Assembly (NCBI RefSeq): GCF_000195755.1
Contig: NC_002937.3
Location: 390,001 to 422,000, forward strand
Reading direction: 5' to 3'
Source of the DNA: Nitratidesulfovibrio vulgaris str. Hildenborough
Lineage (GTDB): Bacteria; Desulfobacterota; Desulfovibrionia; Desulfovibrionales; Desulfovibrionaceae
DNA: 32,000 nt
Shown: positions 1,830 to 28,083 of the stretch, in pieces
How positions within the stretch are numbered: the first letter of the stretch is position 1
Layout: each line of letters begins with the position of its first letter
Made by a program: the position numbers and the translations under genes
The notes under the pieces: generated by a model
Told to the model about the DNA's origin: nothing
Seen by the model: the letters and a program-made list of their open reading frames with translations, nothing else
Databases searched by the model: none

Positions 1830-3368
1830 TTATCTGTTGCGACGCAGTCTGCCGAGGGCGCGCGTGGCAAGCCCGGTCAGGTCGGCCCGTGTCAGGCCTG
1901 CGAGAGGCGGGAACAGGAGAACCCCGCCGCCTACGATGCACGAGTAGAGCACGCCCGAGACGAAGAAGCGGACGATGGCCGTGGCATCGCCGAGGCCCAT
2001 CGCCATCGTGCCCGTGCGGCACAGCCACGCCGCACCGACGAGGAAGGCCAGCGCCCCGGCCTGATGGGCGACGTTGCGCCAGAAGTGCATGGGTATCATG
2101 CGCGAGCCCACCCAGAGCATGAAATTGACGGAGACGAACTGGAGCAGCACGGTCTTGATGGCAAGCCCGGTGGCCCCGAGGCCGAAGCCGAAGTGCGAGG
2201 CAGGGGCAAGCAGCAGCCACGACATGCAGAACCCGATGCAGTACTCGGTGACGGCGATGTTGCGCATGGTGCGGGTGCGCCCCATGGAATAGAACACCGC
2301 GCCTGCCAGTTGCCCGTAGCCCTGATGCACGGGGTACAGGGCCATTATCTGCACAGGCACGATGGCCGCCGCATACTGCGCTCCGCCGAAGATGGCCACC
2401 ACGGCGGGGGCTTCGACGGCGGTGAAGCACGAGAAGTAGCCCGCCACGGTGAAGAGCAGGGGGGCGAAGCGGTCGAGCAGCCTGCCCATCTCCTTGAGGT
2501 CCTTGTTGCCGTAGGCGATGGACAGCTCGCGCATGACCAGCGGGGTCATGGCGGAAACGAACAGGAAGCAGGCGATGCCCACCTTCTGCGAGAGGGCGAA
2601 GAATCCCTGCTGCACGCTGCCTTCGAAGGTCTGGAGCAGCCAGCGTTCCGCCACGAGAAACACCGTTGAGGCCAACGCCTGCACGAAGAGGGGCGAACTG
2701 TACGTCCAGAATTCGCGGGTGTAGGCGCGTCGCGCCTCGCGGTCGAGAGTGAAGTCGGGCTTCTGCCAGCAGCCGCGCAGGACGAGGCCGAACCCCGCCG
2801 CCAGCAGGAGAAGCGTGGCGTACTGCTGCGCGAAGAGCACCCCCATGTTGAGCCACCCGGCCCAGAACAGTCCCGCAAGAACGGCCACGCTACCGAGGTT
2901 CACCGCCGTGCGCACCATCTCGCTGGAGACCGTGACACCCAGCGCGTCATTCATGGAACGCAGCACGCGCCCCCACCATGTGAGGAAGGCCCACAGCGCG
3001 GCCAGCGGCACTATCCATGCCGGAACACCCGGCAACAGCCAGTCGCCAAGCACAGGCACGAAGGCCAGCCCCGATGAGAGCATGGTCACCACCAGCATGA
3101 GGGCGGTGGCGCGAAGGTAGAAGGAGACGAGGCCGAATTCCTGCTGTCGCCGTGACAGGGCGTTGTAAAAGCAGGTCGAGGTGCCCATGTCGAGGAAGCC
3201 CGTGAACTGCTGGAACATGTTGGTGGCGAAACTGTAGTCGCCGTAGGCCTTGGGGCCGAGGGCGCGAGGCAGTATGGCCTCCATCGTCAGGTACACGGGG
3301 ATGCTGGCGACGTTGGCAAGCAGCTTGTAGGCGTAGCGTTTGGCGAGTGTCTGCTGGGGTTGGGCCAT
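1830..3368 (-). CDS. Oligosaccharide/polysaccharide flippase, Wzx-like (MOP superfamily)
   Basis: 512 aa with an ATG start, and hydrophobic throughout with many predicted helices. The N-terminal region KLLANVASIPVYLTMEAILPRALGPKAYGDYSFATNMFQQF is typical of polysaccharide-biosynthesis (Wzx/RfbX-type) transporters. Confidence 0.8.
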   Translation of the reverse strand: MAQPQQTLAKRYAYKLLANVASIPVYLTMEAILPRALGPKAYGDYSFATNMFQQFTGFLDMGTSTCFYNALSRRQQEFGLVSFYLRATALMLVVTMLSSGLAFVPVLGDWLLPGVPAWIVPLAALWAFLTWWGRVLRSMNDALGVTVSSEMVRTAVNLGSVAVLAGLFWAGWLNMGVLFAQQYATLLLLAAGFGLVLRGCWQKPDFTLDREARRAYTREFWTYSSPLFVQALASTVFLVAERWLLQTFEGSVQQGFFALSQKVGIACFLFVSAMTPLVMRELSIAYGNKDLKEMGRLLDRFAPLLFTVAGYFSCFTAVEAPAVVAIFGGAQYAAAIVPVQIMALYPVHQGYGQLAGAVFYSMGRTRTMRNIAVTEYCIGFCMSWLLLAPASHFGFGLGATGLAIKTVLLQFVSVNFMLWVGSRMIPMHFWRNVAHQAGALAFLVGAAWLCRTGTMAMGLGDATAIVRFFVSGVLYSCIVGGGVLLFPPLAGLTRADLTGLATRALGRLRRNR

Positions 3369-3663
3369 GATGGAGTCCGTTCTGTGCGTCGGGGCGGCGC
3401 GCGTTACGTCGTGTGTGATGGTGCAGGGCGCGGTTGCCGCGTCGACCGGTGTGGACGGAAAAGAGGCGGCATCGGGGATGGTCGGGAACCCCTTGTCACC
3501 TGACGTGTCACATCGTGTGGCTTATCACGTGGTGTGTCGCGGATTGTACCGCGCGTGACGGCGTGCTTTGGGACAGCGTACGGGGCGCAGAGAGCAGGGG
3601 ACTGAAAATCCCCCGGTCCGTCGTCTCGTACGCTACGGTTTCAACCGGCCGCCACCAAAAACG

Positions 3664-4335
3664 TCACGGCAAATGTCGTACCACGCGGGCGGGTACGCCC
3701 GCCACCAGTGTCGCGGGGGGAACGTCGCGTGTGACCACGCTGCCTGCCGCCACGATGGCTCCGTCACCGATGGTCACGCCCTTGAGCACGATGCAGCGCA
3801 TCCCCAGCCAGACATGTTGACCGATGGTCACGTCGGCATCGCGTTCGAAGGCGGGTGTGTCCAGCCGCGTCTCGGGGGGCCACATGGCGTGGAAGTCGGA
3901 GTCGGTGATGACGCAGTTGGGCGCGACCATGGTGCCCTTGCCGATGCGGATGGTGCGCGACCGGGCGGTGATGGCCGTGCCGTTGAGACTCACGCCGTCC
4001 TCGAGGATGATGCGTGCCGTGGGCGCGAAGGTGCGAAGTCGCGTGGGGGCGTGGATGGTGGCAGAAGTGCAGCGCCGTGACGAGGAGATGATGCTCACCC
4101 CGTCGCCGAGTTCGATGCGGCTGCCCGGCCAGCGCGAGAGGATGACCGTGCCGAAGCACTCGCAGCCCTTGCCGACGGTGATGCCGAGGCAACCGGCCTT
4201 GGCCCGCAGCATGAGCGTGCCCCATGCCCCGGAAAGCAGGCGATGCCCCGCGATACAGCCGTAGCTGAAGAGGTCGCGCGGGGTGAGGCCGCGGTCGCGT
4301 ATCTTGTGCAGTGCGTTGCGAAGTCTGCCGGACAT
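3664..4335 (-). CDS. Hexapeptide-repeat (left-handed beta-helix) acetyltransferase, WcaF/maltose-O-acetyltransferase-like
   Basis: 223 aa with imperfect hexapeptide repeats: IELGDGVSIISS, ILEDGVSLNGTAITARSRTIRIGKGTMVAPNCVITDSDFH, VTIGQHVWLGMRCIVLKGVTIGDGAIVAAGSVVTRDVP. It starts 18 nt downstream of the preceding gene. Confidence 0.8.
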   Translation of the reverse strand: MSGRLRNALHKIRDRGLTPRDLFSYGCIAGHRLLSGAWGTLMLRAKAGCLGITVGKGCECFGTVILSRWPGSRIELGDGVSIISSSRRCTSATIHAPTRLRTFAPTARIILEDGVSLNGTAITARSRTIRIGKGTMVAPNCVITDSDFHAMWPPETRLDTPAFERDADVTIGQHVWLGMRCIVLKGVTIGDGAIVAAGSVVTRDVPPATLVAGVPARVVRHLP

Positions 4336-4353
4336 GGGCGTGCGTCTCGCGGG

Positions 4354-6078
4354 CTAGAGGGTCCGCAGGGTCTGCGTCCATACCCTGTCGAAATCGTCGT
4401 CGGTGGTCAGGGCATAGCGGGCGGACCACCGGGCGCGTGCCTCGCGTACCGGGGCGGAGTGCCACCAGCCGGGAACGTCGTCCCAGATGCGGGCGATGTG
4501 CGCTGCCGCAGCCGCAGGGGTGCGGTGATAGATGCCCGCCTCCTCAAGCCAGCCGAGGGCCTCTTCCGTCTCGGGGCACACGCGCCAGTGTTGCATGTTC
4601 CAGAACAGCACCATGGGTACGTCGGCGGCCATGGCCAGTTCAAGGGTTGTGCCGTGGTGGTCGAGGACAAGCAGACGGCAACGGAGCATGTGGTCGTCGA
4701 GGCTGCCCGTGCAGCGTTCCACGTCAGGCACCCGTCGCAGCACCCATGGCGCGTCTTCGAGTCCGCTACGGGTCTCGAAGTAGGGCCGGTACAGGGTGGC
4801 CTTGCGGGTGGCTTCGGGCAGGGCTTCGAGGAACGTCACCTTGTCGTTGCGGTAGTGCGTGAATTCGAAAGGCTGCGGCTTGGAGTCGAGTCTGTAGTTG
4901 AAGGTACTCATCTCCGCGCCCACGAGGATGAGCCTGCCGCTTTCGTCCCGGTGCCTGCCGCGCAACTCCTGAAGCTGCGCGTGGGGCACGGGTACGAAGT
5001 TGCCCTTGTGCGGCCCGTGCGAGGTCCACCCCCATGTGAGGAAGGCGTGCTGGTTGTACTCGTAGACGGGCGATGTGCCGTAGGTGCGGACATGCCCGTA
5101 GTTGCCGCCATGCTGGATGAAGACCAGCCGGGTGCCGGCAGCGCGTGCGGCGGCGAGATGAAAGCGGTAGGGGTCGTCGTAGAAGCTGGCGACGCTGGCG
5201 ACACGGATGCCGGGACGGGCAGCGGGCTTCACGCGGCGCGGGAGCGGCGTGGTGTAGAAGCTGCGCGGGATGGACGGCAACAGTACCGTGTCGGGGTCGA
5301 AGCACCACTGCGGCATCCTGCCCCGCAGCCTGTCGAGGGGTATCGTGTTGTCGGCGGAGTTGCGGTTGGCCATGAGGGCCAGCGAATACAGCAGCGAACG
5401 ACGGGTGGAGAAGCCCTTCACGCGGGGGAATGGCAGTTTGTAGAGCAGGGTGCGCGCCATGTGGCGCAAGCCCTTCTCGGGAGCGCCGCAATGGCGCGTG
5501 ACGGGTTGCGCCCAGCGCACGGTCCACGCCGCCGGGACCATGCCCTCGATCATGCGCGAGAAGACCCAGTGGTTGAACAGGTTGTCCTGTGCGCCGTGGA
5601 GGACGAAATCGTGCGTCGAGTGGAAGGAGAAGGCGCAGTCGCCGGGCAGCAGGGTGACTTCAAGTTCTTCGTCACCGAAGAGGCGTAGCATGTCCTGTAC
5701 GCGACGTTGCCGTTCCACCAGCAACTGTCCGCAGAGTGCCAGCCACGGGATGAGGGCCACCTCCCAGAAGGCGCGTGGCAGGTCGGCACCGTGGTGCGCG
5801 CCCAGCCGCAGGGCGATGTCGTCGATGCGGCTGATGGCATAGGTGTGGGCCTCGTCCTGCGCTTGTGCCAGAAGGTCGGGGTCGGCGAAGGGCGGCGGGC
5901 AGATGGTGAAGGATGTCTCCCAGCCGGGAAAGCGTTCCTCCTGACCGGCGAAGGCCCACGGCCCCGCCATGATATGCGTCTCGGGCGTGGCGTCTTCGGG
6001 GGCGGCCCCGAGGACGAGGACGCGGCGTGCGGTGCTGTCGCTCATGGATGTGACCTGCGCCGCCGTGCCGTGGGGCAC
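4354..6078 (-). CDS. Large uncharacterised protein; putative glycosyl (ulosonic-acid?) transferase, possibly of the LIC12162/TIGR04331 type
   Basis: 574-aa ORF embedded in the operon. The start is either GTG at 6078 or ATG at 6045 (MSDSTARRVLVLG). The C-terminal half has GT-B-like patches: LVFIQHGGNYGH, RLILVGAEMS, LLVLDHHGTTLELAMAADVPMVLFW. I recognise no canonical family motif; the family guess is recollection only. Confidence that it is a real CDS is about 0.85; the value given is for the functional call. Confidence 0.4.
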   Translation of the reverse strand: MPHGTAAQVTSMSDSTARRVLVLGAAPEDATPETHIMAGPWAFAGQEERFPGWETSFTICPPPFADPDLLAQAQDEAHTYAISRIDDIALRLGAHHGADLPRAFWEVALIPWLALCGQLLVERQRRVQDMLRLFGDEELEVTLLPGDCAFSFHSTHDFVLHGAQDNLFNHWVFSRMIEGMVPAAWTVRWAQPVTRHCGAPEKGLRHMARTLLYKLPFPRVKGFSTRRSLLYSLALMANRNSADNTIPLDRLRGRMPQWCFDPDTVLLPSIPRSFYTTPLPRRVKPAARPGIRVASVASFYDDPYRFHLAAARAAGTRLVFIQHGGNYGHVRTYGTSPVYEYNQHAFLTWGWTSHGPHKGNFVPVPHAQLQELRGRHRDESGRLILVGAEMSTFNYRLDSKPQPFEFTHYRNDKVTFLEALPEATRKATLYRPYFETRSGLEDAPWVLRRVPDVERCTGSLDDHMLRCRLLVLDHHGTTLELAMAADVPMVLFWNMQHWRVCPETEEALGWLEEAGIYHRTPAAAAAHIARIWDDVPGWWHSAPVREARARWSARYALTTDDDFDRVWTQTLRTL

Positions 6079-6097
6079 GGCGGCGCGGTTGCGGTTG

Positions 6098-7156
6098 CTA
6101 TTCGAGATGGCCCCATTTCAGGACGGTGTCTTCGGCGATGTCGGCGCGTGCCTTCATGCCCACGACCTCGTCATAGCAGCGGGGGCTGATGCCGTGGGCC
6201 GGACGCTTCCACGTCAGGTCGGCGGGTTCGAGCACCTTGCCCGCGGGAATGGCGCGGGCGGCCACGAGGCTGCGGCGGGCGTTGCGGCGTGCCGGTTCCT
6301 CGGAGGGCAGCGAGGTGATGTTGCACGGGCCCACCATGCCGGTGACGCGCTCCATGTTCGTGCGGAAGACCTTGAGGTCGTCCTTGTCCATGGCGTGGTA
6401 GTGGTCGTTGCCCGGCAGGGTCTTGTCGTGGCTGAAGTGCTTTTCGAGGATGGTCGCACCGAGCAGCGTGGCCACTTCGAGCACCTTCATGTCACGCGGG
6501 AGGGTGTGGTCGGAATAGCCGATGAGGTGCTGCGGGAAGTGCTGGCGCAACACGGGGATCATGCCGAGGCCCGCGTTCACGTCGTCGGTGGGGTAGTTCA
6601 GCACGCAGTGCAGCAACGCCAGCGGGTTGCCCTTCTCTTCGATCCACGACACGGCCTCTGCGATCTCATGCAGGTAGGCGGCCCCGGTGGAGAGGATGAT
6701 GGGCTTCTTGAAGTCGCACAGGAAGCGGATGAACGGCTTGTTCGTGATGTCCGACGAGGAGATCTTGAACACGTCCATGAGATCGTCGAGGAAACCTGCC
6801 GACTCCACGTCGAACGGCGTGGAGAGGAACTCGATGCCCGCCGTGTCGCAATGTCGCTTCAGGGCCTCGAACTCGCCCTTCCAGAACTTGTCGTGGCGGG
6901 TGAACAGCTCGTACTGGCTCTTGGTGGGTTCCTTGGTGGTGTCCCAGTAGGCCGGAGAGTCCTTGGATGCGAGCGTGGCCGCCTTGTAGGTCTGGAACTT
7001 GATGGCGTCGGCACCGCCTTCGCACGCCTCGTCGATGAGGCGGCGCGCGATGTCCATGCTGCCTTCGTGGTTCACGCCCGCTTCGGCGATGACATAGGGC
7101 CGTGCGATGCCGTCGGCGGGGACGGGGCGGTGTGCGAACAGTTCGAGAAGTTTCAT
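6098..7156 (-). CDS. N-acetylneuraminate-synthase-family enzyme (NeuB/PseI/LegI/SpsE type) with C-terminal SAF domain
   Basis: 352 aa. Motifs: YVIAEAGVNHEGSMDIARRLIDEA, GADAIKFQTY, PIILSTGAA, GYSDHT. The C-terminal SAF-like stretch is RRSLVAARAIPAGKVLEPADLTWKRPAHGISP. A strong RBS (GGGAGGAGCACG) precedes the ATG. Confidence 0.9.
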   Translation of the reverse strand: MKLLELFAHRPVPADGIARPYVIAEAGVNHEGSMDIARRLIDEACEGGADAIKFQTYKAATLASKDSPAYWDTTKEPTKSQYELFTRHDKFWKGEFEALKRHCDTAGIEFLSTPFDVESAGFLDDLMDVFKISSSDITNKPFIRFLCDFKKPIILSTGAAYLHEIAEAVSWIEEKGNPLALLHCVLNYPTDDVNAGLGMIPVLRQHFPQHLIGYSDHTLPRDMKVLEVATLLGATILEKHFSHDKTLPGNDHYHAMDKDDLKVFRTNMERVTGMVGPCNITSLPSEEPARRNARRSLVAARAIPAGKVLEPADLTWKRPAHGISPRCYDEVVGMKARADIAEDTVLKWGHLE

Positions 7157-7192
7157 CGTGCTCCTCCCTTGGTTGGGTTGGGGCTGTTGGGC

Positions 7193-7876
7193 TTATGCCG
7201 TGCGGGGGAGCATGGCGACCAGCTCCTCCGGGGTGATGTCGGGATGGATGTCCATAAGGGCGAGGTACCGGTAGTCGGCGGGCGTGTCCATGTCCAGTTT
7301 GAGGTCGGGACGGTGCAACGCCGGGTCGGCCGGGTCGAAGGTACGTATGGTGTAGCGTTCGGGGTGCGCCCAGATGAACGACAGGCAGTGCTCGCGGTGT
7401 TCGGGCAGCGTCGCCTCGCGGGCCACTTCCTCGAGCAGTGCGAACGAGAGCGTCTCCGCCCCGAGACCGTCGGGGTAGAGGTTGCCGCGCGGGATGTGGT
7501 TGTAGGCGTAGTCGCACCCCTCGGCCCGCCAGAAGCGGATGAGGTCGTCGATGGCACCGCCCCAGATGAGCGGGTTGTCGGCGCACACGCGCACCACCTG
7601 CTCTGCGCCGTAGGCAGCCCCGGCGAGGCGGAAGCGTTCGAGCACGTCGTCTTCCGGCCCGCGGAACACCGCCACCCCCTGCCGGGAGAGGTGATGTTCG
7701 AGGATGTCGTTCTCGGGCTGCGTGGAGGTGGCTACCACCACCTCGTCGACGAGGGTGGCACGGCGTACGCGGCGCACGACCCAGTCGATGACGGGCAGGC
7801 CGTGCAGCGAGAGCATCATCTTGCAGGGCAGGCGGCTGGAACCGAGGCGTGCCTGTATGAGGGCTACGGTCTTCAT
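7193..7876 (-). CDS. SpsF-like cytidylyltransferase (CTP_transf_3 family)
   Basis: 227 aa. The N-terminus KTVALIQARLGSSRLPCKMMLSLHGLPVIDWVV is the SpsF/FlmC-type nucleotidyltransferase signature. Its ATG overlaps the upstream stop as ATGA (7873-7876). Confidence 0.8.
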   Translation of the reverse strand: MKTVALIQARLGSSRLPCKMMLSLHGLPVIDWVVRRVRRATLVDEVVVATSTQPENDILEHHLSRQGVAVFRGPEDDVLERFRLAGAAYGAEQVVRVCADNPLIWGGAIDDLIRFWRAEGCDYAYNHIPRGNLYPDGLGAETLSFALLEEVAREATLPEHREHCLSFIWAHPERYTIRTFDPADPALHRPDLKLDMDTPADYRYLALMDIHPDITPEELVAMLPRTA

Positions 7877-9507
7877 GCGTTCTCCGGTGCGGGGGTGTCG
7901 TCGAGCAGCGCGGTGATGCGGCGTACCACGTCGGCCTTGTTGCGGATGAAGTCGAACCGCGCCTGCCTGTCGAACAGACGGCGGCGGTTTCCGGCGTCGA
8001 GAAGCTGGGTGAACACGCGGGTGAGCTTGGCCCCGTCGAAGTGCTCCATGACGCCGAGGTAGGCGAAGCCGTTGCGTCCGCGGGCGAAGGTGTGCCGCCC
8101 CTCCCGTTCGTGATGGGCCATGACGATGGCAGGCACGCGCATGTGCGCCAGTTCATACACCGTGCGTCCGGCGGAACAGATGGCGAGGTCGGCCCCCTCC
8201 ATCATGCGGGACATGACGTTGGTGGCGTAGGTGAACTCCACGAGGGGCGAACCAAGCCGTTCCACATGTTCCTGCATGGCGTCCTTGTGGGCGTAACCTG
8301 GGCCCGCCACAAGCCGGATGGTGATGCCGCGTTCGCGGCACAGCGGTTCGATGGCGTCGAGGGTGCCACGGCTGAAGTCGGAGTGGTCGGTGCCGCCGAA
8401 GGTGACAAGGACGCAACGCACCGGGTCGCGATAGTCGTTGCGAACGCCGTTGACGAATTCGTCGCGCAGGCAGAAGAAGCGGTGCCCGTGCAGGAAACGC
8501 GGGTCGTCGACCTTCTCCTCGTACAGGGCGTTGACCACAAGGTCTGCCAGATGCGCGCCGGGCCCTTCGTCCTCGAAGTTGACCACGCGCACACCCGCCT
8601 CCCTGAGGCGGCCCACATAGTCGGCATCGGTGTTGAGGATGTCGTTGATGACGAGGTCGGGTCGCAGGGACAGTACATCCGCCGCAAGGTCGTCGCCCTG
8701 CTGCACCCGCGTACGGTAGTCGCGTGCGGCGATGTTGCTGGCTGCAAGCTCGCTTTCACGGGTGCACAGGAAGGTGATGCGGTGGTCGGCCACCTCGTGT
8801 GCCAGCATCAGCGCACGGAAGATGTGTCCCATGCCGATGGCGGGGTAGCCCGCCACCACGAACACGATGTGCTTGCGGCAGAGCAGCTTCTCGCAGATCC
8901 ACCAGTCCTGGTAGCTGTTTATCTCGATGGCCCGGTCGTTGAGGAAGTAGGGGACGACCTTGCGTACCTCGCCGCGGGTCAGCGCCGAGGCGTCGAGCAT
9001 GACCAGTGCCTTGCTCTCGACATAGATGGAAGGTTCGGTCTCGTCCTGCGACAGCAGGGCGTCGAGTCCCCCGTTGCGCTTCTCCCACACGCGGTGGCGC
9101 ACGCTCTTGACGGTGACGAGGCAGTCGGCCCCTTCGCGCAGGAAGGTGGCGTAGGCGTCTTCGATGTCGTCGGCGGTGAGCAGGGGGCAGCTTGCGCGGT
9201 AGATGACGATATGCCCGTAGCTGCGGGCGAGGTCTTCAAGAACGCCGCGCAATTCGCGCACGATGTCCAGCGTGGCGAGATGCAGTCCGGGGTTGCACAC
9301 ATGGCGCACCCCGTTGCGTTCGCAGATGAGGGCGATTTCCTGACTGTCGGTGACGACCACGATGTCGTCGCCGGGGGCAAGCGCCTTGGCGGTGTCGATG
9401 GCACGCTGGATGAGCGTCACCCCCGCCAGCCGTTTCACCAGCTGGTCGGGGATGACCGCGTTCTTCTTGACCGCGGGGATGACGACGCAGCGTCGCGTGT
9501 CGCTCAT
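7873..9507 (-). CDS. Fusion protein: N-terminal acylneuraminate-type cytidylyltransferase domain plus C-terminal PseG-like (SpsG / GT28-C fold) nucleotide-sugar hydrolase domain
   Basis: 544 aa. Residues about 1-215 (CVVIPAVKKNAVIPDQLVKRLAGVTLIQRAIDTA ... VIYRASCPLL) look NeuA/PseF-like. From about residue 220 I read HIVFVVAGYPAIGMGHIFRALMLAHEV (PseG GxGH-R-LA motif), VLVTFGGTDHSDF and GADLAICSAGRTVYELAHMRVPAIVM (PseG/MurG C-terminal pattern). Confidence 0.75.
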   Translation of the reverse strand: MSDTRRCVVIPAVKKNAVIPDQLVKRLAGVTLIQRAIDTAKALAPGDDIVVVTDSQEIALICERNGVRHVCNPGLHLATLDIVRELRGVLEDLARSYGHIVIYRASCPLLTADDIEDAYATFLREGADCLVTVKSVRHRVWEKRNGGLDALLSQDETEPSIYVESKALVMLDASALTRGEVRKVVPYFLNDRAIEINSYQDWWICEKLLCRKHIVFVVAGYPAIGMGHIFRALMLAHEVADHRITFLCTRESELAASNIAARDYRTRVQQGDDLAADVLSLRPDLVINDILNTDADYVGRLREAGVRVVNFEDEGPGAHLADLVVNALYEEKVDDPRFLHGHRFFCLRDEFVNGVRNDYRDPVRCVLVTFGGTDHSDFSRGTLDAIEPLCRERGITIRLVAGPGYAHKDAMQEHVERLGSPLVEFTYATNVMSRMMEGADLAICSAGRTVYELAHMRVPAIVMAHHEREGRHTFARGRNGFAYLGVMEHFDGAKLTRVFTQLLDAGNRRRLFDRQARFDFIRNKADVVRRITALLDDTPAPENA

Positions 9508-9514
9508 GCGGCGG

Positions 9515-10696
9515 CTATCCCTTGCGGAGGGTTTCGAGCACGTCGATGGTCGAGGCGAGCATGTGGTCGAACTCGCCTTCTGTCAGCCAGTGCTGGAACG
9601 GGAAGGAGACCATGTTGTCGAAGAAGAGGTCGGCGTTGGGGCAGTCCGCCGTGCCGAAGCCCAGTTTCTTGTAGAACGGGTAACGGTCGAGCGGGTAGTA
9701 CTGCACCACGCACTTCACGCCCTTCTCGTCATGCATGGCGCGGATGAAGTCGTCGCGCCTGCCGTTGGTCATGCGGGCGGCCAGCAGGTGGTAGTTGTGG
9801 CGGGTGGTGTCCACCCGGTGGAATTCGAGTTCGGGGTAGTCCGCCAGCGCGTCGATGAAGCGTATGGCGCGTTCGCGCTTCTCGGCGTTGATGCGGGAGA
9901 CGCGTTCAAGCTGTTTGATGCCAAGCGCGCACTCTATCTCGCCGATGCAGTAGTTGTTGGGCCACAGGAACTCGCCATCGATTTCGGGCATGTCCACGTT
10001 GCCCATGGCGGGCTTCCAGTAGTCGGGGCGCTCGAAGTCGAAGCCGCAATGCCCGTTGTGGCGCAGGGCGGGCACCAGCTTCGCCAGTGCGGGGTCCTTC
10101 ACCACGAGCATGCCCCCCTCGCCGAGGGTGGTCATGTTCTTGTGCGAATGGAACGAATAGATGGCGAAGTCGCCGAAGGCACCGGACATGACGCCGTCGA
10201 TGTCCGCGCCGATGGACTGCGCGGTGTCTTCGACGACCAGCAGGTTGTGCCTGCGCGCGAGGTCCATGATGGCGGGCATGTCGGCCACGTAGCCGTACAG
10301 GTGCACCACGACGATGGCCCTGGTGCGCGGCGTGAGCACCTTCTCGATGCTCTCGGCGGTGACGACGCGGGTGGCGAGGTCGATGTCGGCCCACACCAGT
10401 TTCGCCCCCTTCTTGGCGAAGGGATAGGCCGAAGCGGTGAAGGTGTGTGACGGGATGATGACCTCGTCACCGGGGCGGAAGCGGCAAAGCTGGGCCGAAA
10501 GCTCCAGTGCCGAGACGCCGTTCATGACTGCGAAGCTGTGCTCCACACCGATGAACCGGGAGAACCTCTGCTGGAATTCCTGCATGTAGCGGCCCTGCGT
10601 GAGCGTCTCCGCATTGCGCATGGCGTCCACCACGGTGGCGATTTCCTCTTCGGTGTACCTGAGGGCGCGACCGCTGAAATTGACCTTGAGTTCCAT
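9515..10696 (-). CDS. DegT/DnrJ/EryC1/StrS-family PLP-dependent sugar aminotransferase
   Basis: 393 aa. Motifs: FAVMNGVSALELS, DEVIIPSHTFTASA, LLVVEDTAQSIGA, and the catalytic-lysine segment AIYSFHSHKNMTTLGEGGMLV. An AGGAG RBS lies upstream of the ATG. Confidence 0.9.
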   Translation of the reverse strand: MELKVNFSGRALRYTEEEIATVVDAMRNAETLTQGRYMQEFQQRFSRFIGVEHSFAVMNGVSALELSAQLCRFRPGDEVIIPSHTFTASAYPFAKKGAKLVWADIDLATRVVTAESIEKVLTPRTRAIVVVHLYGYVADMPAIMDLARRHNLLVVEDTAQSIGADIDGVMSGAFGDFAIYSFHSHKNMTTLGEGGMLVVKDPALAKLVPALRHNGHCGFDFERPDYWKPAMGNVDMPEIDGEFLWPNNYCIGEIECALGIKQLERVSRINAEKRERAIRFIDALADYPELEFHRVDTTRHNYHLLAARMTNGRRDDFIRAMHDEKGVKCVVQYYPLDRYPFYKKLGFGTADCPNADLFFDNMVSFPFQHWLTEGEFDHMLASTIDVLETLRKG

Positions 10697-10829
10697 CCGT
10701 CAGACTCCTGATGTGTCCTGCCGGGAGGGTTGCTGCGTGGGCCGACCGGGTGTTCCGCCTGTCCCGGTGGCGGTATGGCATGGTCGCGGGAGGGTGTCCC
10801 CCCGCGACCCGGTATGCGTGGACGCGCCG

Positions 10830-11903
10830 CTACATGGCCTTGAACAGGGAGATGACCTTCTCGCGGGTGAGGATGTCGCGGAAGCCGGGGCCGAGGGCGT
10901 TGGTCAGCGGCTTCTCGTGCACCACCGACGAGGCGACGAGGGACTCGTACTGCGCGTCGGTGAGGTTCGCGCACAGCCCCTTGGGCAGTGTGACGCCCTG
11001 ACGTTCCATCATGGCCACGAAGTGCTTGTGGTCTTCGGGGTAGAACTCTTCGAGCACGCTCATGGCATGGCAGTTGGCGATGCCGTGGTGGGCGTGCAGC
11101 ACCACCGAAAGACCGGCGGAGATGGGATGGATGACGCCCACGTTGCCTGCGCTCATGCCGCCGAGGTACGAGGCTATCATCATCTTCTCGAGATTCTCGT
11201 CGCTCATCATGTCGTCGGAGAGGAAGATGTCGAGGCACATGCCCACGGCCTTCTCCGCCAGCGCGTCGATGATGACGTTGCGGTAGCTGCCCCGCAGCGA
11301 CTCGATGCAGTGCATGTAGGTGTCCATGCCCGTGTAGAAGTACTGGTCGCGGGGTACGGTGCGGGTGAGTTCAGGGTCGAGCAGCAACTGGTCGTACATG
11401 GTGAAGTCGCTGTTCATGCCCAGCTTGATGCCGCGCTGCACGTTGGTGAGCACGCAGGTGCGCGAGCATTCGGCCCCGGTACCCGAAAGGGTGGGTACGC
11501 CTATCTTGTAGACGGCGGGGAACTTCACGAGGTCCCAGCCCTGATAGTCTTCGGCCTTGCCGGGGTTGGTGAGCATGTTGGCCACGGCCTTGGCGGTGTC
11601 CAGCACGGCACCGCCGCCGATGCCCACCACGCAGCAGGGCTGGCGGTCGTCGTCGGCGCGTATCGCGGCGGTGAAGGCGTCGATGTCGGTGGTCTTGGGT
11701 TCTTCGGTGGTGTCGACGAAGTGCAGCTGGTCGCCCTGCTGCATGGGCAGACGGTCTATGAGGTCGTGCCCGCGGAAGAAGTGGTCGACGAAGAAGACGA
11801 CGGGGCCCTTTTCGGCACGGCGTTCCGCCAGCAGGTCGCCCAACTGGGCGAACGAGCCTTTGCCGAAGACATAGTAGGGAACGTTCTTTGTATTGCGGTA
11901 CAT
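10830..11903 (-). CDS. Iron-containing (group III) alcohol dehydrogenase-family oxidoreductase; first gene of the operon
   Basis: 357 aa. NAD-binding motif VVGIGGGAVLDTAKAV. Metal-ligand His clusters GMDTYMHCIESL and VIHPISAGLSVVLHAHHGIAN. An AGGAG RBS lies 8 nt upstream of the ATG. Confidence 0.9.
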   Translation of the reverse strand: MYRNTKNVPYYVFGKGSFAQLGDLLAERRAEKGPVVFFVDHFFRGHDLIDRLPMQQGDQLHFVDTTEEPKTTDIDAFTAAIRADDDRQPCCVVGIGGGAVLDTAKAVANMLTNPGKAEDYQGWDLVKFPAVYKIGVPTLSGTGAECSRTCVLTNVQRGIKLGMNSDFTMYDQLLLDPELTRTVPRDQYFYTGMDTYMHCIESLRGSYRNVIIDALAEKAVGMCLDIFLSDDMMSDENLEKMMIASYLGGMSAGNVGVIHPISAGLSVVLHAHHGIANCHAMSVLEEFYPEDHKHFVAMMERQGVTLPKGLCANLTDAQYESLVASSVVHEKPLTNALGPGFRDILTREKVISLFKAM

Positions 11904-12376
11904 GCTGCAAACTCCTGATGGTTGCGAGGGGGTGGGCCGCAGTGGTGCATTCTAGGGACAATCATCGATGCGGGCAAGCGCACCCTGCGTCGTTCACTGG
12001 ATGTTGTCGTGACGTCGCGTGCGGCGTCGTGCCTGCCGGGTGGCAGGTACGCATTCCGGTTGTCTCGGTGATGTGCTGTGGGATGGGGGCATGGCCTTCG
12101 CCCCTCCGGGGTGGCGTCGTGGCCCGATGTCTCTCCGGGTCGTCCAGACCGCCGGAGAGATGGAGAAGATGTCTGGACGGCGCACAGATAGGGAGAAGCG
12201 GTGATGAAGTCAATGCCCCCTGCGGGGCCGCGTCGGACGTGGCTTGCAGGTCGTCGGTCATGGAGTCGGTCAGGGATGCGGAGAAGGGCTGTCTTGTGGA
12301 TGGACGGGGTGATCGTCCGGCGTATGGGGGGCAAGACAACGGTGCGTGTGCGTGCTATGGAAAAATCGTCTTGGCC

Positions 12377-15471: not shown

Positions 15472-16047
15472 ATGACCGAACCGTTCCGGTGTCCGTGGGC
15501 ACGAAGCCCTGAAGAAGTACTTTACCACGATACGGAGTGGGGCGTGCCCAGTCGTGACGACAGGGTCCACTTCGAGTTTCTCATCCTTGAGGCGGCGCAG
15601 GCCGGATTGAGCTGGCTGACGGTGCTTCGCAAGCGTGAGGGGTATCGCCGTGCCTTCGCCGCGTTCGACCCCGAAGCCGTGGCCCGCTTCGGCCCTGCCG
15701 ACGTGGCACGGCTCATGGCCGACGCGGGCATCGTCCGCAATCGCCTCAAGATAGAATCGGCCATCCATAACGCAGGGCCTTTCCTGCGTCTTGCCGAGCG
15801 ACACGGTTCCTTTGCGGCGTGGTTATGGGACTTCGTGGATGGGCGACCTGTCGACGGTCGGCGGGAGAGTCTCGCCGACGTCCCCGCCACGACGCCACTC
15901 GGCGAGAAGGTGAGCAGGGCACTCAAGGCCGAGGGGTTCCGCTTCGTGGGGCCCACGGTGGTCTACGCCCATTTGCAGGCCACGGGGCTCGTCAACGACC
16001 ATCTCGTGACCTGCTTCCGCCATGAGGCGGTGGCAGGGCTTGCGTGA
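15472..16047 (+). CDS. tag: DNA-3-methyladenine glycosylase I
   Basis: 191 aa. Motifs: RCPWARSPEEVLYHDTEWGVPSRDDRVHFEFLILEAAQAGLSWLTVLRKREGYRRAFAAFD and VVYAHLQATGLVNDH. A GGAGGGG RBS is present. Confidence 0.95.
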   Translation: MTEPFRCPWARSPEEVLYHDTEWGVPSRDDRVHFEFLILEAAQAGLSWLTVLRKREGYRRAFAAFDPEAVARFGPADVARLMADAGIVRNRLKIESAIHNAGPFLRLAERHGSFAAWLWDFVDGRPVDGRRESLADVPATTPLGEKVSRALKAEGFRFVGPTVVYAHLQATGLVNDHLVTCFRHEAVAGLA

Positions 16048-16100
16048 GGGCGCAACAGGTGTTCAACCCCGTCGGCAGGCGGGTGCACAATGAGGCTGGC

Positions 16101-16976
16101 ATGACAGACCCCCGGTACATGGCTCTATTGCTCGACATCGCCGCCCGCAAGGAACGCGGGGCCCTTCTCGAAGTGGACGACCCGTACCCTTGGCAGCCCC
16201 GCCCTCGCTGGGGGCATGGCAATGCCCCTCATGCCGCATTGCGCGACCTGTTCGATGCGCGGCGCAGCGAGTACATCCCCCTGCTTGATGCCATGGTAGC
16301 CCATGCCGGACGGTTCGCCGCCATACGGAGAGACTTCGATGCCTCCGCACCGCATGAACCGCACTGGGACAACGGCTGGCTACCCTCACTGGACGGCATG
16401 TCCATCTACACGCTGCTGGCACAGATGCGTCCGTCACGCTTCGTAGAGGTGGGGTCGGGCAATTCGACACGGTTCGCCGCACGCGCCATACGCGATTGCG
16501 GGCTTGCCACGCGCATCGTCTCCATCGACCCTGCCCCGCGTGCCGAGGTTGACAGGCTGTGCCATGAGGTGGTGCGTGCCCCGCTGGAGAACGTGGATAT
16601 GGCGTTCTTCGACACCGTGACGGCGGACGACCTCGTCTTCGTCGACTGCAGCCACAGGGCGCAGCAGAACTCCGACGTGACGGTCTTCTTCCTTGAGATG
16701 CTGCCCCGGTTGCCCGTCGGGTGCGTTGTGGGCATCCACGACATCTGCCTGCCGCTGGACTACCCGCCGGGGTGGGAGGGGCGCTACTACAATGAACAGT
16801 ACATGCTGGCGACGCTGCTTCTCTTCGGGGCGGAACGCTTCAGCCTGCTGCTGCCGGGGTACCATGTCTCCACGACGCCCGACCTCGCCGCACGGCTTGC
16901 CCCCCTTGCCGCCCTTCCGGGGCTTGCAGGGCTGCCCTGCGCCGGGAGCGTGTTCTGGATGCGGAAAAGGGCGTGA
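16101..16976 (+). CDS. Class I SAM-dependent methyltransferase (Methyltransf_24-like)
   Basis: Motif I is FVEVGSGNSTRFAARAI; downstream are LVFVDCSHRAQQNSDV and VVGIHDI. The ATG at 16101 has a GAGG 5 nt upstream. The ORF is also open from a GTG at 16044, which overlaps the tag stop as GTGA. Confidence 0.6.
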   Translation: MTDPRYMALLLDIAARKERGALLEVDDPYPWQPRPRWGHGNAPHAALRDLFDARRSEYIPLLDAMVAHAGRFAAIRRDFDASAPHEPHWDNGWLPSLDGMSIYTLLAQMRPSRFVEVGSGNSTRFAARAIRDCGLATRIVSIDPAPRAEVDRLCHEVVRAPLENVDMAFFDTVTADDLVFVDCSHRAQQNSDVTVFFLEMLPRLPVGCVVGIHDICLPLDYPPGWEGRYYNEQYMLATLLLFGAERFSLLLPGYHVSTTPDLAARLAPLAALPGLAGLPCAGSVFWMRKRA

Positions 16977-17019
16977 TGCCCTGCCCGATGTCCGCCCGCG
17001 CTGCACGCCAATGCGAAAA

Positions 17020-17041
17020 GGCCACGGATTTCTCCGTGGCC
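17020..17041. terminator. Bidirectional intrinsic terminator shared by the methyltransferase gene (+) and tRNA-Thr (-)
   Basis: 9-bp stem GGCCACGGA / TCCGTGGCC with loop TTTC. It is flanked by AAAA on the 5' side and TTTCTATTC on the 3' side, so each strand reads hairpin followed by a U-rich tract. Confidence 0.7.
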
Positions 17042-17051
17042 TTTCTATTCA

Positions 17052-17127
17052 TGGAGCCCATGAGCAGAATTGAACTGCTGACCTCATCCTTACCAAGGAT
17101 GTGCTCTACCGACTGAGCCACATGGGC
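17052..17127 (-). tRNA. tRNA-Thr (anticodon GGU)
   Basis: The reverse complement reads GCCCATG TG GCTC AGTCGGTA GAGC A CATCC TTGGTAA GGATG AGGTC AGCAG TTCAATT CTGCT CATGGGC T CCA. This is a perfect 76-nt cloverleaf with encoded CCA. Confidence 0.95.
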
Positions 17128-17341
17128 GTCGTGCGACGGGATTCCGTCGGGCGGAGGATGAGCTAGCTTTTTTTGTCGTGACCGTCAACCCCTTGGCCGT
17201 CCATACCATTCACTGAAACGGGGATGGAGCGTGCAACGGAGTGGTTTCTGTCATATGGCATATGAATTGCTATCGTTTTGCCGGTGGCGACACCCCGTCG
17301 TCCCTTGTCTGACAGCCAGCGCCACTCTGCCGGGAGATGCC

Positions 17342-18085
17342 ATGGAACAGGGCTTCGATGCACTCGATTTCACGAGACTTGAACTGATGCGTAACGCCGA
17401 AGTGACAAGACTTGCCGAAGCGGACTATCTCGAACGCGAAATCCTTCCCGGACTCGGGCTGAACGGGGAGAAGCTGCACCAGTTTCCTGCCCATCTGCAC
17501 ACCTTCTGCGGGCAAGGGTTGCGTTCGTGGCAATACCCCAATCAATTCGGGCGATACCTTGCCACCATCGCACGTTTTCCAGTGCAGACCTATGTCGAGA
17601 TAGGCGTGCGGCATGGCGGGACGTTCGTGGTGACGCTCGAATACCTGCGCCGTTTCAATCCCCTTGTGCGAGGGCTTGGCATCGACATCTTCAGGTCGCC
17701 CGCCCTCGAAGCCTACCGCGAGCACAATCCCAGGGCCGCCTTCCTGCAAGTGGACAGCCGTAGCGAACGTTTCCGGCGTCTTGTGGACGACTATCCGGTC
17801 ATAGACCTCGCCTTCATCGACGGAGACCACTCGTTCGATGCCGTGCGGAGTGATTTCGCCCTTCTCCATGGCAAGGCACGGCTCATCGGCTTTCACGACA
17901 TCGTCAACGACGATGCGCCGGGTTGTCCGGAGGCATGGCAGAGCATCCGGTTCGAACATGCCCGCGACTATGTCTTCATGGAGTTCACGGAACAGTACTT
18001 CGATACGGTGCGCCATAACGGCATGACGTTCCTTGGCATCGGCCTCGCCATCAGACGCGACACGCTTCCCGCCGCGCGGGCATGA
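17342..18085 (+). CDS. Class I SAM-dependent methyltransferase (Methyltransf_24 / CmcI-like fold)
   Basis: The start is taken at ATG 17342 (MEQGFD), with a GGAG 5 nt upstream. Motifs: YVEIGVRHGGTFVVTLEYL, LAFIDGDHSFDAVRSDF, LIGFHDI. Confidence 0.6.
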   Translation: MEQGFDALDFTRLELMRNAEVTRLAEADYLEREILPGLGLNGEKLHQFPAHLHTFCGQGLRSWQYPNQFGRYLATIARFPVQTYVEIGVRHGGTFVVTLEYLRRFNPLVRGLGIDIFRSPALEAYREHNPRAAFLQVDSRSERFRRLVDDYPVIDLAFIDGDHSFDAVRSDFALLHGKARLIGFHDIVNDDAPGCPEAWQSIRFEHARDYVFMEFTEQYFDTVRHNGMTFLGIGLAIRRDTLPAARA

Positions 18086-19287: not shown

Positions 19288-19317
19288 CCCCCGCCGGCGC
19301 GTGTCGGCGGGGGTTTT
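19288..19317 (+). terminator. Attenuator (intrinsic terminator) between the leader peptide and ilvB
   Basis: 9-bp all-GC stem CCCCCGCCG / CGGCGGGGG, loop GCGCGTGT, then TTTT. It lies 74 nt upstream of the ilvB ATG. Confidence 0.75.
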
Positions 19318-19390
19318 CGCATCCAGCGAAAGCACAGGTTCAGAGCACCCTCGCCGGAACGGCCGGTGGACAGACCGCAGGAGGTCGTCC

Positions 19391-21082
19391 ATGTACCGTA
19401 TGTCTGGCGCGGAGCTCGTCATCCGCCTGCTCGAACGACAGGGGATAGACTGCATTTCGGGCATTCCCGGCGGGGCCAACCTGCCCCTCTACGACGCACT
19501 GTCGCACAGCAAGCGCATCCGCCATGTGCTGGCCCGTCATGAACAGGGCGCGGGCTTCATCGCGCAGGGCATGGCCCGTTCCACCGGCAGGCCTGCCGTC
19601 TTCTTCGCCACCTCCGGCCCCGGGGCCACCAACACCCTCACCGCCATCGCAGACGCCAAGCTCGACTCCGTGCCGGTCATCTGCATCACGGGGCAGGTGC
19701 CACGCAGCATGATAGGCAGCGACGCCTTTCAGGAAGTGGACATCTACGGCATGAGCATTCCGGTGACCAAGCACAACTTCCTCGTGCGTTCGGTCGAAGA
19801 CCTCCTCACCGTCATCCCCGAGGCGTTCCGCATCGCCACATCGGGCCGTCCCGGCCCGGTTCTCGTGGACATCCCCAAGGATGTGCAGACCGCTGAAGTC
19901 GCCTTCGAGGCGTGGCCCGAAACGGGGGGACCCGACCCCGCCGAGGCCCCGGACATGGAAGGGCTCGCCCGTGCGGCACGTATGCTGGCAGAGGCCGAGC
20001 GTCCCATCCTGTTCATCGGCGGTGGCGTCGTCGCCTCGGGGGCGGGGGAGGTTGCGCGCGTGTTCGCCGAACGCACGGGCCTGCCCACAGCCATGTCGTT
20101 GCTGGGGCTTGGCACCCTGCCGCCCGAACATCCGCTCACGCTCGGGATGCTGGGTATGCACGGGGCACGTTGCACCAACATGCTGCTTGAAGAGTGTGAC
20201 CTGCTCATGGTGGTGGGGGCCCGTTTCGACGACCGCGCCACGGGCCGCATCGAACAGTTCTGTCCGCACGCGTCCATCATCCATGTGGATATCGACCCCA
20301 GCGAAATCGACAAGCTTCGCACGGCCCATGTCGCCATCACCGGGGATGCCGGTCGAGTGCTCGAAGCGTTGCTGCCCATGCTGGAACCCGTCGACAGGAA
20401 GGCATGGCACGGGCATGTGGCCCGCATGAAGGCGGCGCATCCATTGCTCACTCCCGGCGCGGACGACCCTCGCACGCCCTATGGACTTGTGACCTGCACC
20501 GCCGCCTGTCTCGACGATTCGGCCATCATCGCCACCGACGTGGGGCAGCACCAGATGCGTACGGCACAGGCCTACCCCTTGCGGCGTACGCGCCAGTGGC
20601 TCACCTCCGGCGGGCTGGGTACCATGGGGTTCGGTCTGCCAGCAGCCATCGGCGCGGCCCTCGCCAACCCGGAGCGTACGGTGGTGTGCTTCACGGGCGA
20701 CGGCAGCCTTCAGATGAACATCCAGGAACTCGCCACCGCCGCCGAGACGGGGGCCAATGTGAAGATCGTGCTGGCGAACAACAACGCCCTCGGCCTTGTG
20801 CAGCAACAGCAGGATCTTTTCTACGGCAGGCGCATCTTCGCGTCCGACTTCACGCACCGTATCGACTTCGTGCGCATCGCCGAGGGGTTCGGGGTGCCTG
20901 CGGTGGACCTCGGGCGGAGTGCCGACCCCAAGCGTGACCTCGCCCGCGCCCTGCGCGCCAAGGGGCCGTGCCTCATCCATGTCCCCGTGGCCGTCGAGGA
21001 GAACGTCTACCCCATGGTCCCGCCCGGAGCAGCCAACACCGAGATGATAGGAGGAGAAGCCCATGCGCCTGCCCACGCCTGA
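19391..21082 (+). CDS. ilvB: Acetolactate synthase (AHAS) large subunit, biosynthetic type
   Basis: The start at ATG 19391 is preceded by AGGAGG. Motifs: [46 protein letters not shown], and the ThDP motif [15 protein letters not shown]...[12 protein letters not shown]. Confidence 0.95.
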
Positions 21083-27072: not shown

Positions 27073-27149
<77 letters not shown>

Positions 27150-28055: not shown

Positions 28056-28083
28056 TTTTCAGTAAAATGCTTGCAGCATGGAG

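Follow-up and report, generated by a model that had tools for sequence, protein, structure and literature searches.

A run of eight minus-strand genes at positions 1830-11903 of a 32,000-nucleotide stretch of the Nitratidesulfovibrio vulgaris str. Hildenborough chromosome (NC_002937.3, positions 390,001 to 422,000; the whole stretch is referred to as the window and its numbering is used below) is predicted to direct the biosynthesis and display of a nonulosonic acid and lies outside the pseudaminic acid (Pse), legionaminic acid (Leg) and sialic acid (Neu) pathways, judged by the enzymes that define them. We tentatively favor, at slightly under an even chance, an uncharacterized route to a nonulosonic acid that has no linked 4,6-dehydratase and would rely on a KdnB-type oxidase and a transaminase to add an extra terminal amino group. 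A preliminary description of this DNA had recognized a nonulosonic-acid-type glycan operon, and we found the parts that support that view: a NeuB synthase with a SAF domain, cytidylyltransferases, a PseG-like domain, a DegT aminotransferase and a Wzx-type flippase. The genes, listed from the first to the last of the operon, are as follows (locus tags are those explained below).

10830-11903, minus strand: Fe-ADH gene, 357 aa, taken as DVU_0353
9515-10696, minus strand: DegT aminotransferase gene, 393 aa, taken as DVU_0352
7873-9507, minus strand: cytidylyltransferase-like/PseG-like fusion gene, 544 aa, taken as DVU_0351
7193-7876, minus strand: SpsF-like cytidylyltransferase gene, 227 aa, taken as DVU_0350
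6098-7156, minus strand: NeuB+SAF synthase gene, 352 aa, taken as DVU_0349
4354-6078, minus strand: LIC12162-family transferase gene, 574 aa
3664-4335, minus strand: hexapeptide acetyltransferase gene, 223 aa
1830-3368, minus strand: Wzx-type flippase gene, 512 aa

These open reading frames (ORFs), which lie on a window of about 65% G+C, are real genes, since all eight products have family matches in Pfam or NCBIfam, the G+C content at third codon positions is high (0.85-0.90 compared to 0.63-0.68 overall across the eight ORFs), public assemblies hold the same gene calls, and DVU_0353 is represented by peptides. The last of these, an Fe-ADH of 39.4 kDa, appears with 15 peptides in an N. vulgaris proteome table that places it under ethanol metabolism (PMC10920352). 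Look-up of the sequences returned the consecutive accessions AAS94833 to AAS94836 for exact-match proteins, which we infer to be the products of DVU_0350 to DVU_0353; as a whole, the locus spans roughly DVU_0346 to DVU_0353. The ORF list agreed with the preliminary description on the coordinates of the eight coding sequences and on their spacing: junctions of 7 nt (9508-9514), a 4-nt ATGA overlap at 7873-7876 (checked in the sequence) where the start of the SpsF-like gene overlaps the stop of the fusion gene, and 36, 19 and 18 nt, with two larger gaps of 133 nt (10697-10829) and 295 nt (3369-3663). The start of the 574-aa gene is more likely the ATG at 6045, giving 563 aa; the first 15 residues of the longer form are disordered in a structural model, and the 563-aa form is called in some assemblies. 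The junction upstream of this gene would therefore be 52 nt rather than 19. In its gene layout the eight-gene operon is real, with putative co-transcription.

Enzymes of the known routes were looked for with Pfam and NCBIfam scans. No extended short-chain dehydrogenase/reductase (SDR) dehydratase, GNAT or Epimerase_2 (NeuC/LegG) protein turned up, either within the set of eight or in the further window ORFs that were scanned, in agreement with the earlier statement that the operon lacks PseB/LegB, a GNAT-type PseH and NeuC/LegG. The nearest SDR, a protein of 304 aa encoded about 4 kb past the flippase gene and outside the window, scored 36 bits with the PseB model (cut-off 408) and 68 bits with the LegB model (cut-off 475). 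The PseC, PseG, PseI, PseF, NeuB, LegC and NeuD/LegH-type models all remained below their curated cut-offs for the operon proteins, so that the enzyme complement is indeed non-canonical; with equivalog scores below cut-offs, the enzymes did not all fall in well-characterized Pse or Leg clades, the outcome that the preliminary description had named as contrary to it.

The most specific clue to the chemistry comes from the first gene. Its product matches the Pfam Fe-ADH and ADH_Fe_C models, as expected from the family first assigned to it; the generic alcohol dehydrogenase that this family name implies did not hold up, since the protein is a homologue of KdnB, the Kdo (3-deoxy-D-manno-octulosonate) 8-oxidase of Shewanella oneidensis (PDB 5k8c; E = 2.6e-100, 339 bits over residues 2-355, 48% identity or 168/349 residues of a 357-aa protein). 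The next unrelated Fe-ADH classes in the PDB reached at most 95 bits, and it is by this gap (339 versus ≤95 bits) that the protein is assigned to the KdnB subfamily, for which no curated cut-off exists. The motifs TNPG, YQGW and PTLSGTGAE are common to both proteins. On this sequence evidence we place the Fe-ADH in the KdnB subfamily and predict that it oxidizes the terminal CH2OH of an ulosonic acid to an aldehyde; homology and gene context together indicate that DVU_0353 is a sugar-acid oxidase rather than an enzyme of ethanol metabolism. Among 8,000 candidates scored with the Fe-ADH, 7,723 reached E ≤ 1e-30. The adjacent DegT protein, the obligate partner of the Fe-ADH, belongs to the DegT/DnrJ/EryC1 family of pyridoxal phosphate-dependent aminotransferases (PF01041, 294 bits) and remained below the NCBIfam cut-offs for PseC (231.5 versus 423.5 bits), the LegC family (171 versus 420) and WecE.

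By virtue of the KdnB homology, the Fe-ADH/DegT pair has a specific precedent in Shewanella KdnB/KdnA (5k8c, 5k8b), in which the same Fe-ADH subfamily stands beside a DegT-family aminotransferase; the chemistry predicted for the window pair is that of Shewanella, with a terminal primary alcohol of a 3-deoxy-ulosonic acid being oxidized and then transaminated. The two systems differ in that the window DegT is not the closest relative of KdnA, that the cassette hosts are anaerobes or microaerophiles, and that the window pair has as neighbors a PseG-like hydrolase, two cytidylyltransferase domains and, in the usual case, a NeuB-type C9 synthase, and therefore the likely substrate would be a nonulosonic acid, not Kdo. 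In their start regions, before the ATG, the Fe-ADH and DegT genes share the string CATCAGGAGT.

The third gene codes for a fusion of two domains.

nt 8908-9507 (about aa 1-200), minus strand: N-terminal cytidylyltransferase-like domain with a degenerate CTP loop
about aa 210-470, followed by an 80-aa tail, minus strand: C-terminal PseG-like GT-B nucleoside diphosphate (NDP)-sugar hydrolase domain

The C-terminal part scored 115 bits with the PseG model TIGR03590 (cut-off 153.55) over aa 213-464. The motif G[ML]GH[IV][FY]R is kept in it as G-M-G-H-I-F-R, which we take to be the catalytic-His motif of PseG. The N-terminal part gave weak CTP_transf_3/NTP_transf_3 matches, and PseF-model scores were 34 bits (fusion) and 24 bits against a cut-off of 205.7. 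The fusion family comprises 398 representatives at E ≤ 1e-30, with near-full-length cover in most of the 150 matches listed, and the CTP loop was compared across 117 full-length representatives. Distant members carry the canonical NeuA/PseF loop IPARGGSKGIPRKN, in place of which the window protein has IPAVKKNAVIPDQLVKRLAG; with IPAVKKNAVIPDQL, its N-terminal domain does not fit the CTP-binding pattern (I/V)PAR..S.R/K...K. Most of the roughly 45 closest representatives, and all loci linked to the Fe-ADH, share a strictly conserved loop of the form IPA[IVL]KKNAVIPDQLVKKL. In this class of enzymes CTP is bound by the arginine and lysines of the canonical loop, and these residues are gone from the variant loop. 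The N-terminal domain is thus probably not the catalyst of CMP-sugar formation and would no longer make the CMP-sugar. It has the look of a pseudo-enzyme, or of a domain put to a new use, that is kept under strong purifying selection.

The stand-alone 227-aa protein matches PF02348 (CTP_transf_3) with 82.6 bits and fits the same CTP-loop pattern with its N-terminal motif IQARLGSSRLPCK, of the ARxxSxRLPxK type; its best PDB match is 6oew ("cytidylyltransferase", 76 bits), and database sources label it SpsF. This SpsF-like enzyme is, from its sequence, the probable working CMP-sugar synthetase, and the degenerate state of the fusion domain would explain why a second cytidylyltransferase is present. 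The two cytidylyltransferase domains noticed earlier are both there, though not as two equivalent enzymes: one is degenerate and the other is an SpsF-like enzyme.

Downstream of these genes, the synthase is a NeuB-family phosphoenolpyruvate (PEP)-condensing ulosonic-acid synthase (PF03102, 230 bits; SAF, 63 bits). It scored 309.9 bits with TIGR03569 NeuB_NnaB (cut-off 399.65; the Campylobacter concisus orthologue scored 336.7) and 220 bits with PseI (cut-off 340.25), less than with the NeuB/LegI-type model; among solved structures it matched SpsE (162 bits), Neisseria meningitidis NeuB (152) and PseI (130). The 574-aa protein, previously called an orphan, is not one: it belongs to the LIC12162 family (TIGR04331, 331.7 bits, cut-off 225) and is assigned to PF27859 in precomputed annotations. 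A sequence search of the PDB gave no match for it, and an AlphaFold2 model built with 34 homologues (pLDDT 94.1, pTM 0.91) retrieved WaaG, SenB, MurG and TarM in Foldseek with a probability of about 1 and TM scores of only 0.24-0.31; no sialyltransferase or Maf protein was among the 50 matches listed. A GT-B-like fold is predicted from the model. Its gene adjoins NeuB in Desulfovibrio falkowii, D. legallii and C. concisus, and the protein is a probable nonulosonic-acid transferase.

The hexapeptide acetyltransferase of the preliminary description was confirmed (Hexapep, left-handed beta-helix) and can be defined further. Its NCBIfam scores were 79 bits for WbbJ and 67-68 bits for maltose/galactoside O-acetyltransferases, compared to 61 bits for the NeuD/PglB family (NeuD_NnaD, cut-off 160.8) over the C-terminal repeats only, and in the PDB it comes closest to galactoside, maltose and polysialic-acid O-acetyltransferases. 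By sequence it is of the sugar O-acetyltransferase type, not a NeuD/PglD-type N-acetyltransferase. The flippase assignment also stood: the protein matches PF01943 (Polysacc_synt, 38.3 bits, cut-off 28.2), has at least 10 hydrophobic segments and had no NCBIfam match. Orthologues end the cassette elsewhere, with 50-79% identity in Nitratidesulfovibrio and D. cuneatus and about 30% in Campylobacterota. The presence of a Wzx gene, both here and in C. concisus, points to a lipid-linked glycan, and it is this gene, and no other in the operon, which suggests that the glycan may be destined for lipopolysaccharide (LPS) or capsule.

Synteny was surveyed with the Fe-ADH profile, using one genome per species (80 loci) and tblastn with all window proteins; each linkage count below is given over the loci with sequence room for the gene in question. 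Of all features of the cassette, the adjacency of Fe-ADH and DegT was the best conserved (63/64 loci), followed by linkage to the PseG-like domain (53/59) and to the SpsF-like cytidylyltransferase (47/55). NeuB directly followed this core at 13 of 49 loci, and a flippase gene came after the Fe-ADH gene at 9 of 40. The order Fe-ADH, DegT, fusion, SpsF-like cytidylyltransferase is conserved in Desulfovibrionaceae (Nitratidesulfovibrio, gut Desulfovibrio, Bilophila and Lawsonia) and in Campylobacterota (C. concisus, Campylobacter sp. M4, a metagenome-assembled genome (MAG) titled Helicobacter cetorum, and Thiovulum), and the cassette is also found in Desulfarculus. It is conserved and horizontally shared. 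C. concisus has all eight functions in the same order, directly after argS: Fe-ADH, methyltransferase, DegT, fusion, SpsF-like cytidylyltransferase, NeuB, radical-SAM/SPASM protein, O-acetyltransferase, LIC12162 protein (375 bits) and flippase. No dehydratase is linked to this cassette either, so that its absence extends to a second phylum and is not peculiar to N. vulgaris; extended-SDR genes were found within 10 kb on either side of the Fe-ADH gene at only 4 of 85 loci, the other 81 having none.

The strongest rival, which we nevertheless consider rather unlikely, is an ordinary 5,7-diamino-tetradeoxy (Leg/Pse-type) pathway with its dehydratase and N-acetyltransferase encoded elsewhere; the DegT protein would then be a PseC/LegC-like C4 aminotransferase, the fusion PseF/PseG-like and the synthase LegI/PseI-like, with the Fe-ADH as a decorating or accessory enzyme. 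The best NCBIfam matches point in this direction (PseC at 231 bits for DegT, PseG at 115 for the fusion, the NeuB/LegI type at 310 for the synthase), as do the SpsE-, SpsF- and SpsG-like similarities and the SDR and second DegT genes of an adjoining cluster outside the window. There is also precedent for an unlinked dehydratase in Bacillus subtilis, where SpsM is encoded away from spsC-G (PMC7439481). However, all of these matches are well below curated equivalog cut-offs, the operon has no GNAT or NeuD/PglD-type N-acetyltransferase, and the neighboring SDR is far from LegB and PseB in score. A cassette free of SDR genes at 81/85 loci and across phyla also counts against an unlinked dehydratase, and an Fe-ADH next to DegT at 63 of 64 loci would be unexpected of an accessory enzyme.

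The pseudaminic acid pathway uses the same families for its aminotransferase, NDP-sugar hydrolase, PEP-condensing synthase and CMP-transferase, and distant members of the fusion family retain a canonical PseF/NeuA CTP loop. Helicobacter pylori HP0326 is a PseF-PseG fusion with the same architecture as the window protein. Unlike that pathway, the operon has neither PseB nor PseH, matches the Pse models below equivalog cut-offs, has a degenerate CTP loop in its fusion, and adds an SpsF-like cytidylyltransferase and a KdnB-type oxidase. The legionaminic-acid pathway of B. subtilis (SpsM, C, D, G, E and F; PMC7439481) provides the best solved match of the synthase, SpsE, and shares an SpsF-type cytidylyltransferase, an SpsG/PseG-like hydrolase and a DegT protein. 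In contrast to it, the operon has no SpsD-type GNAT and no SpsM equivalent was identified; it adds the Fe-ADH, the LIC12162 transferase and the Wzx flippase, and its target would be a Gram-negative envelope rather than the spore crust. Overall, the operon resembles a hybrid of the Shewanella pair for Kdo8N (8-amino-3,8-dideoxy-D-manno-octulosonate) and an sps/Pse-type cluster with a PseF-PseG-type fusion.

In another reading, which we regard as very unlikely, the Fe-ADH, DegT and cytidylyltransferases would supply the LPS core with CMP-Kdo8N or a comparable amino-Kdo, as in Shewanella, and the NeuB/transferase/flippase unit would be an unrelated neighbor. It would account for the KdnB homology, for the weak KdsB-type matches of the stand-alone cytidylyltransferase and for the isolated position of the four-gene core, surrounded by housekeeping genes, in D. 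falkowii and D. desulfuricans. Yet a PseG-like NDP-sugar hydrolase, which has no role in Kdo8N synthesis, is in the core at 53/59 loci, and NeuB directly follows the core at its 13 of 49 loci in three lineages and in the same order. Shewanella, for its part, is said to need no dedicated cytidylyltransferase for Kdo8N, as reported by Gattis and colleagues in 2013. Kdo8N has been called a hallmark of Shewanella (PMC6357163), and the papers found to name it concern, by their titles, Shewanella, marine-bacterial LPS or general topics.

To return to the pathway that we favor, its seven steps, all drawn from homology, would run as follows. The PseG-like fusion domain would free a hexose or hexosamine from its nucleotide, and the NeuB-type synthase would join the free sugar to PEP, giving a nine-carbon ulosonic acid that keeps its terminal CH2OH. 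The KdnB-type Fe-ADH would turn this primary alcohol into an aldehyde and DegT would transaminate it, converting CH2OH to CH2NH2; the product would be an omega-amino (predicted 9-amino-9-deoxy) nonulosonic acid, and this third step may fall before or after the first two. The SpsF-like cytidylyltransferase would then form the CMP-sugar, the LIC12162-family GT-B transferase would add the sugar to a lipid-linked acceptor, the hexapeptide enzyme would O-acetylate the glycan, and the Wzx-type protein would flip it. An acetyltransferase of the O-acetyl type, in a conserved set that lacks an N-acetyltransferase, fits a free amine as in Kdo8N; the Kdo8N of Shewanella LPS carries a free amine. In its most specific form, which is possible but doubtful, the proposal is a route, independent of any dehydratase, to C9-amino nonulosonic acids that would form a new class, for example 5-acetamido-9-amino-3,5,9-trideoxy-non-2-ulosonic acid (C11H20N2O8, 308.122 Da), which would extend the oxidase/transaminase logic of Kdo8N to nine-carbon sugars and be displayed on the envelope of D. 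vulgaris, human-gut Desulfovibrio, Bilophila and C. concisus.

Several observations weigh against this pathway. The DegT protein scored only 118 bits with KdnA (5k8b), about 21st among its PDB matches, and its best PDB match is perosamine synthetase (176 bits), an NDP-sugar enzyme, so that action on a nucleotide sugar would fit better than action on a free ulosonic acid. The classification of KdnB as an oxidase that depends on oxygen (EC 1.1.3.48) sits uneasily with an anaerobic host. The proposal names no specific nucleotide sugar as the putative substrate of the PseG-like domain. By analogy with spsM, the dehydratase and N-acetyltransferase could be encoded elsewhere, and the 304-aa SDR about 4 kb past the flippase gene, outside the window, does have weak GalE/LegB-like scores. 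In most gut Desulfovibrio, moreover, the four-gene core is not beside NeuB, and a joint function of the two is deduced there from their co-occurrence in one genome. In D. falkowii the core sits among housekeeping genes, with NeuB (76% identical) elsewhere on the same contig beside a LIC12162 gene and a Sel1/TPR protein gene (L093:10001-13851); this third protein, of about 345 aa, has Sel1/TPR-type matches (MerG, AlgK, MotX, ExoR), all below cut-off.

Some of these points feed a further alternative, in which the Fe-ADH acts before the synthase on C6 or C4 of a nucleotide-hexose and so replaces the 4,6-dehydratase, followed by DegT, PseG-like release and NeuB, while one cytidylyltransferase may make the nucleotide sugar. 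Such an order of events, which we find quite unlikely, agrees with the action of the closest solved DegT relatives on nucleotide sugars, gives both nucleotidyltransferase domains a role, and matches the split seen in gut Desulfovibrio, which resembles a "precursor module" (Fe-ADH, DegT, PseG-like domain, cytidylyltransferase) and a "synthase/transfer module" (NeuB, transferase). It is at odds with the only characterized relative of the Fe-ADH, 48% identical and with the family-specific motifs kept, which uses a free 3-deoxy-ulosonic acid. The substrates activated by CTP_transf_3 enzymes that have the ARxxSxRLPxK motif are ulosonic acids rather than sugar-1-phosphates, and the CTP loop of the fusion is degenerate, both of which also count against it.

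The destination of the glycan can be viewed from other genomes as well. D. legallii has the same unit of NeuB, LIC12162 and third genes as D. falkowii (L094:10001-13821), here beside flgI, flgK, flagellin-domain, fliW and csrA genes, and in neither of these gut species is a flippase adjacent to the unit. Flagellar or periplasmic targets are therefore possible. As regards flagellin glycosylation in particular, the D. legallii NeuB/LIC12162 genes lie near the flagellar genes but on the opposite strand, and the Wzx gene may point to a lipid-linked glycan instead. The closest known systems also include the sialic-acid clusters of the O-antigen region in Leptospira and Herbaspirillum (PMC6679464), in which a LIC12162-family transferase also stands beside NeuB/NeuA-type genes; these clusters carry TIGR04326 proteins too, which at N. 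vulgaris are represented in an adjoining cluster. In some L. interrogans strains, kdnB is annotated beside neuA genes (PMC8510873). The Leptospira and Herbaspirillum clusters differ in being described with NeuC/NeuA/NeuB for Neu5Ac (PMC6679464), and the present gene order and Fe-ADH/DegT/fusion core are unreported there. A phosphonate (2-aminoethylphosphonate) reading of the combination of Fe-ADH, aminotransferase and cytidylyltransferase was rejected, as no PEP mutase or decarboxylase gene is in the cluster; the thiamine pyrophosphate enzyme gene at 19301-21082 is about 7 kb off, on the other strand and outside the cluster.

Three candidate regulatory features were located around the operon.

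11949-11977, minus strand: weak match to a sigma-70-like promoter, upstream of the first gene and agreeing at 9 of 12 consensus positions
10782-10809, minus strand: perfect 12-bp GC-rich hairpin without a U tract, directly 3' of the Fe-ADH stop codon
3665-3685, minus strand: terminator-like hairpin where the acetyltransferase gene ends, with a stem of 7 pairs and a T-run (tail ACGTTTTTGG)

The promoter scan returned 3 sites compared to 1.5 ± 1.1 in shuffled sequences. The hairpin at 3665-3685 is a possible transcript boundary before the flippase gene, the evidence for a terminator being weak because the background of the scan is high (9 terminator-like sites versus 5.0 ± 2.2 in shuffles), and the hairpin at 10782-10809 is a possible transcript-stabilizing or attenuating element. 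RNA folding of the 133-nt and 295-nt gaps gave non-significant z-scores of −1.3 and −1.5, and for this reason we claim no riboswitch or leader. An Rfam scan of the window found two tRNAs and no match inside the operon, and a megablast search of the whole region against plasmids gave no match.

On its downstream side the operon is followed by a minus-strand gene for a methyl-accepting chemotaxis protein (dCache/HAMP/MCP signal; 1-1483), which runs off the left end of the window. Past it, outside the window and on the same strand, lies a second sugar cluster (L007:14168-21539) with genes for the following products.

HpcH/HpaI aldolase
304-aa SDR with weak GalE/LegB-like scores
KdsB-subfamily cytidylyltransferase, 346 bits, above the cut-off
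second hexapeptide transferase
PGDH-like 2-hydroxyacid dehydrogenase
HAD phosphatase
TIGR04326 surface carbohydrate biosynthesis protein, 902 bits
second DegT protein, 446 aa

Parts of this second cluster come directly after the flippase gene in D. cuneatus (L025) and in a Campylobacterota MAG (L073); in N. vulgaris the chemotaxis gene is inserted between the two sugar clusters, which adjoin each other in other species. The glycan locus thus extends beyond 1830-11903, and the boundary at 1830 implied by the preliminary description has to be given up, since more sugar genes, including the SDR gene, lie past the chemotaxis gene outside the window. The pyruvate aldolase and the KdsB-like cytidylyltransferase of the second cluster hint at a second, aldolase-made ulosonic acid.

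Upstream of the operon are genes for a YscW-like lipoprotein, a PAS-GGDEF protein, Tag and two CmcI-like methyltransferases, on the other strand, together with tRNA-Thr. Flanking the tRNA-Thr gene (17052-17127, minus strand) are the two Methyltransf_24 genes, at 16044-16976 and, with an additional match to RMNT_CmcI, at 17231-18085, both on the plus strand. They lie in a stretch of lower G+C (57.6% at 17001-18000) and might have to do with glycan modification or be part of an island. Farther off, a class IV aminotransferase (21461-22240), a chorismate-binding enzyme (22237-23808) and a glutamine amidotransferase (23780-24553) are encoded on the minus strand at 21461-24553 in what looks like an ordinary pabC/pabB/pabA-type unit, unrelated to the operon. 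The G+C content dips to 48.8% (versus about 65%) at 28001-29000, beside tRNA-Met (27073-27149), possibly marking an integrated foreign element; the ORFs of this stretch (e.g. 28412-29836) have no Pfam match.

A literature search covering Kdo8N enzymes, LIC12162, nonulosonic acids and Desulfovibrio loci found no study of the cassette. Its conserved enzyme set would put an oxidase/transaminase pair, otherwise known only from Shewanella, in the place of the usual dehydratase logic, so that the sugar product has probably not yet been described. The known bacterial routes to these sugars (Neu, Pse, Leg and epimers) all begin with a 2-epimerase or a 4,6-dehydratase, so a widespread KdnB-type oxidase/transaminase cassette would, if the proposal is true, be a new branch of nonulosonic-acid chemistry. 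The Kdo 8-oxidase is the only characterized member of its Fe-ADH subfamily, a large part of which would gain a function from the cassette. N. vulgaris Hildenborough has long been studied as a model organism; studies of D. vulgaris that treat DVU_0353 as an alcohol dehydrogenase of ethanol metabolism would need correction. On bacterial surfaces, nonulosonic acids influence how the immune system recognizes cells (Siglecs, complement), how phages attach and how cells aggregate. The same proposal would also mean that human-gut sulfate reducers and Campylobacter concisus carry an unstudied surface antigen.

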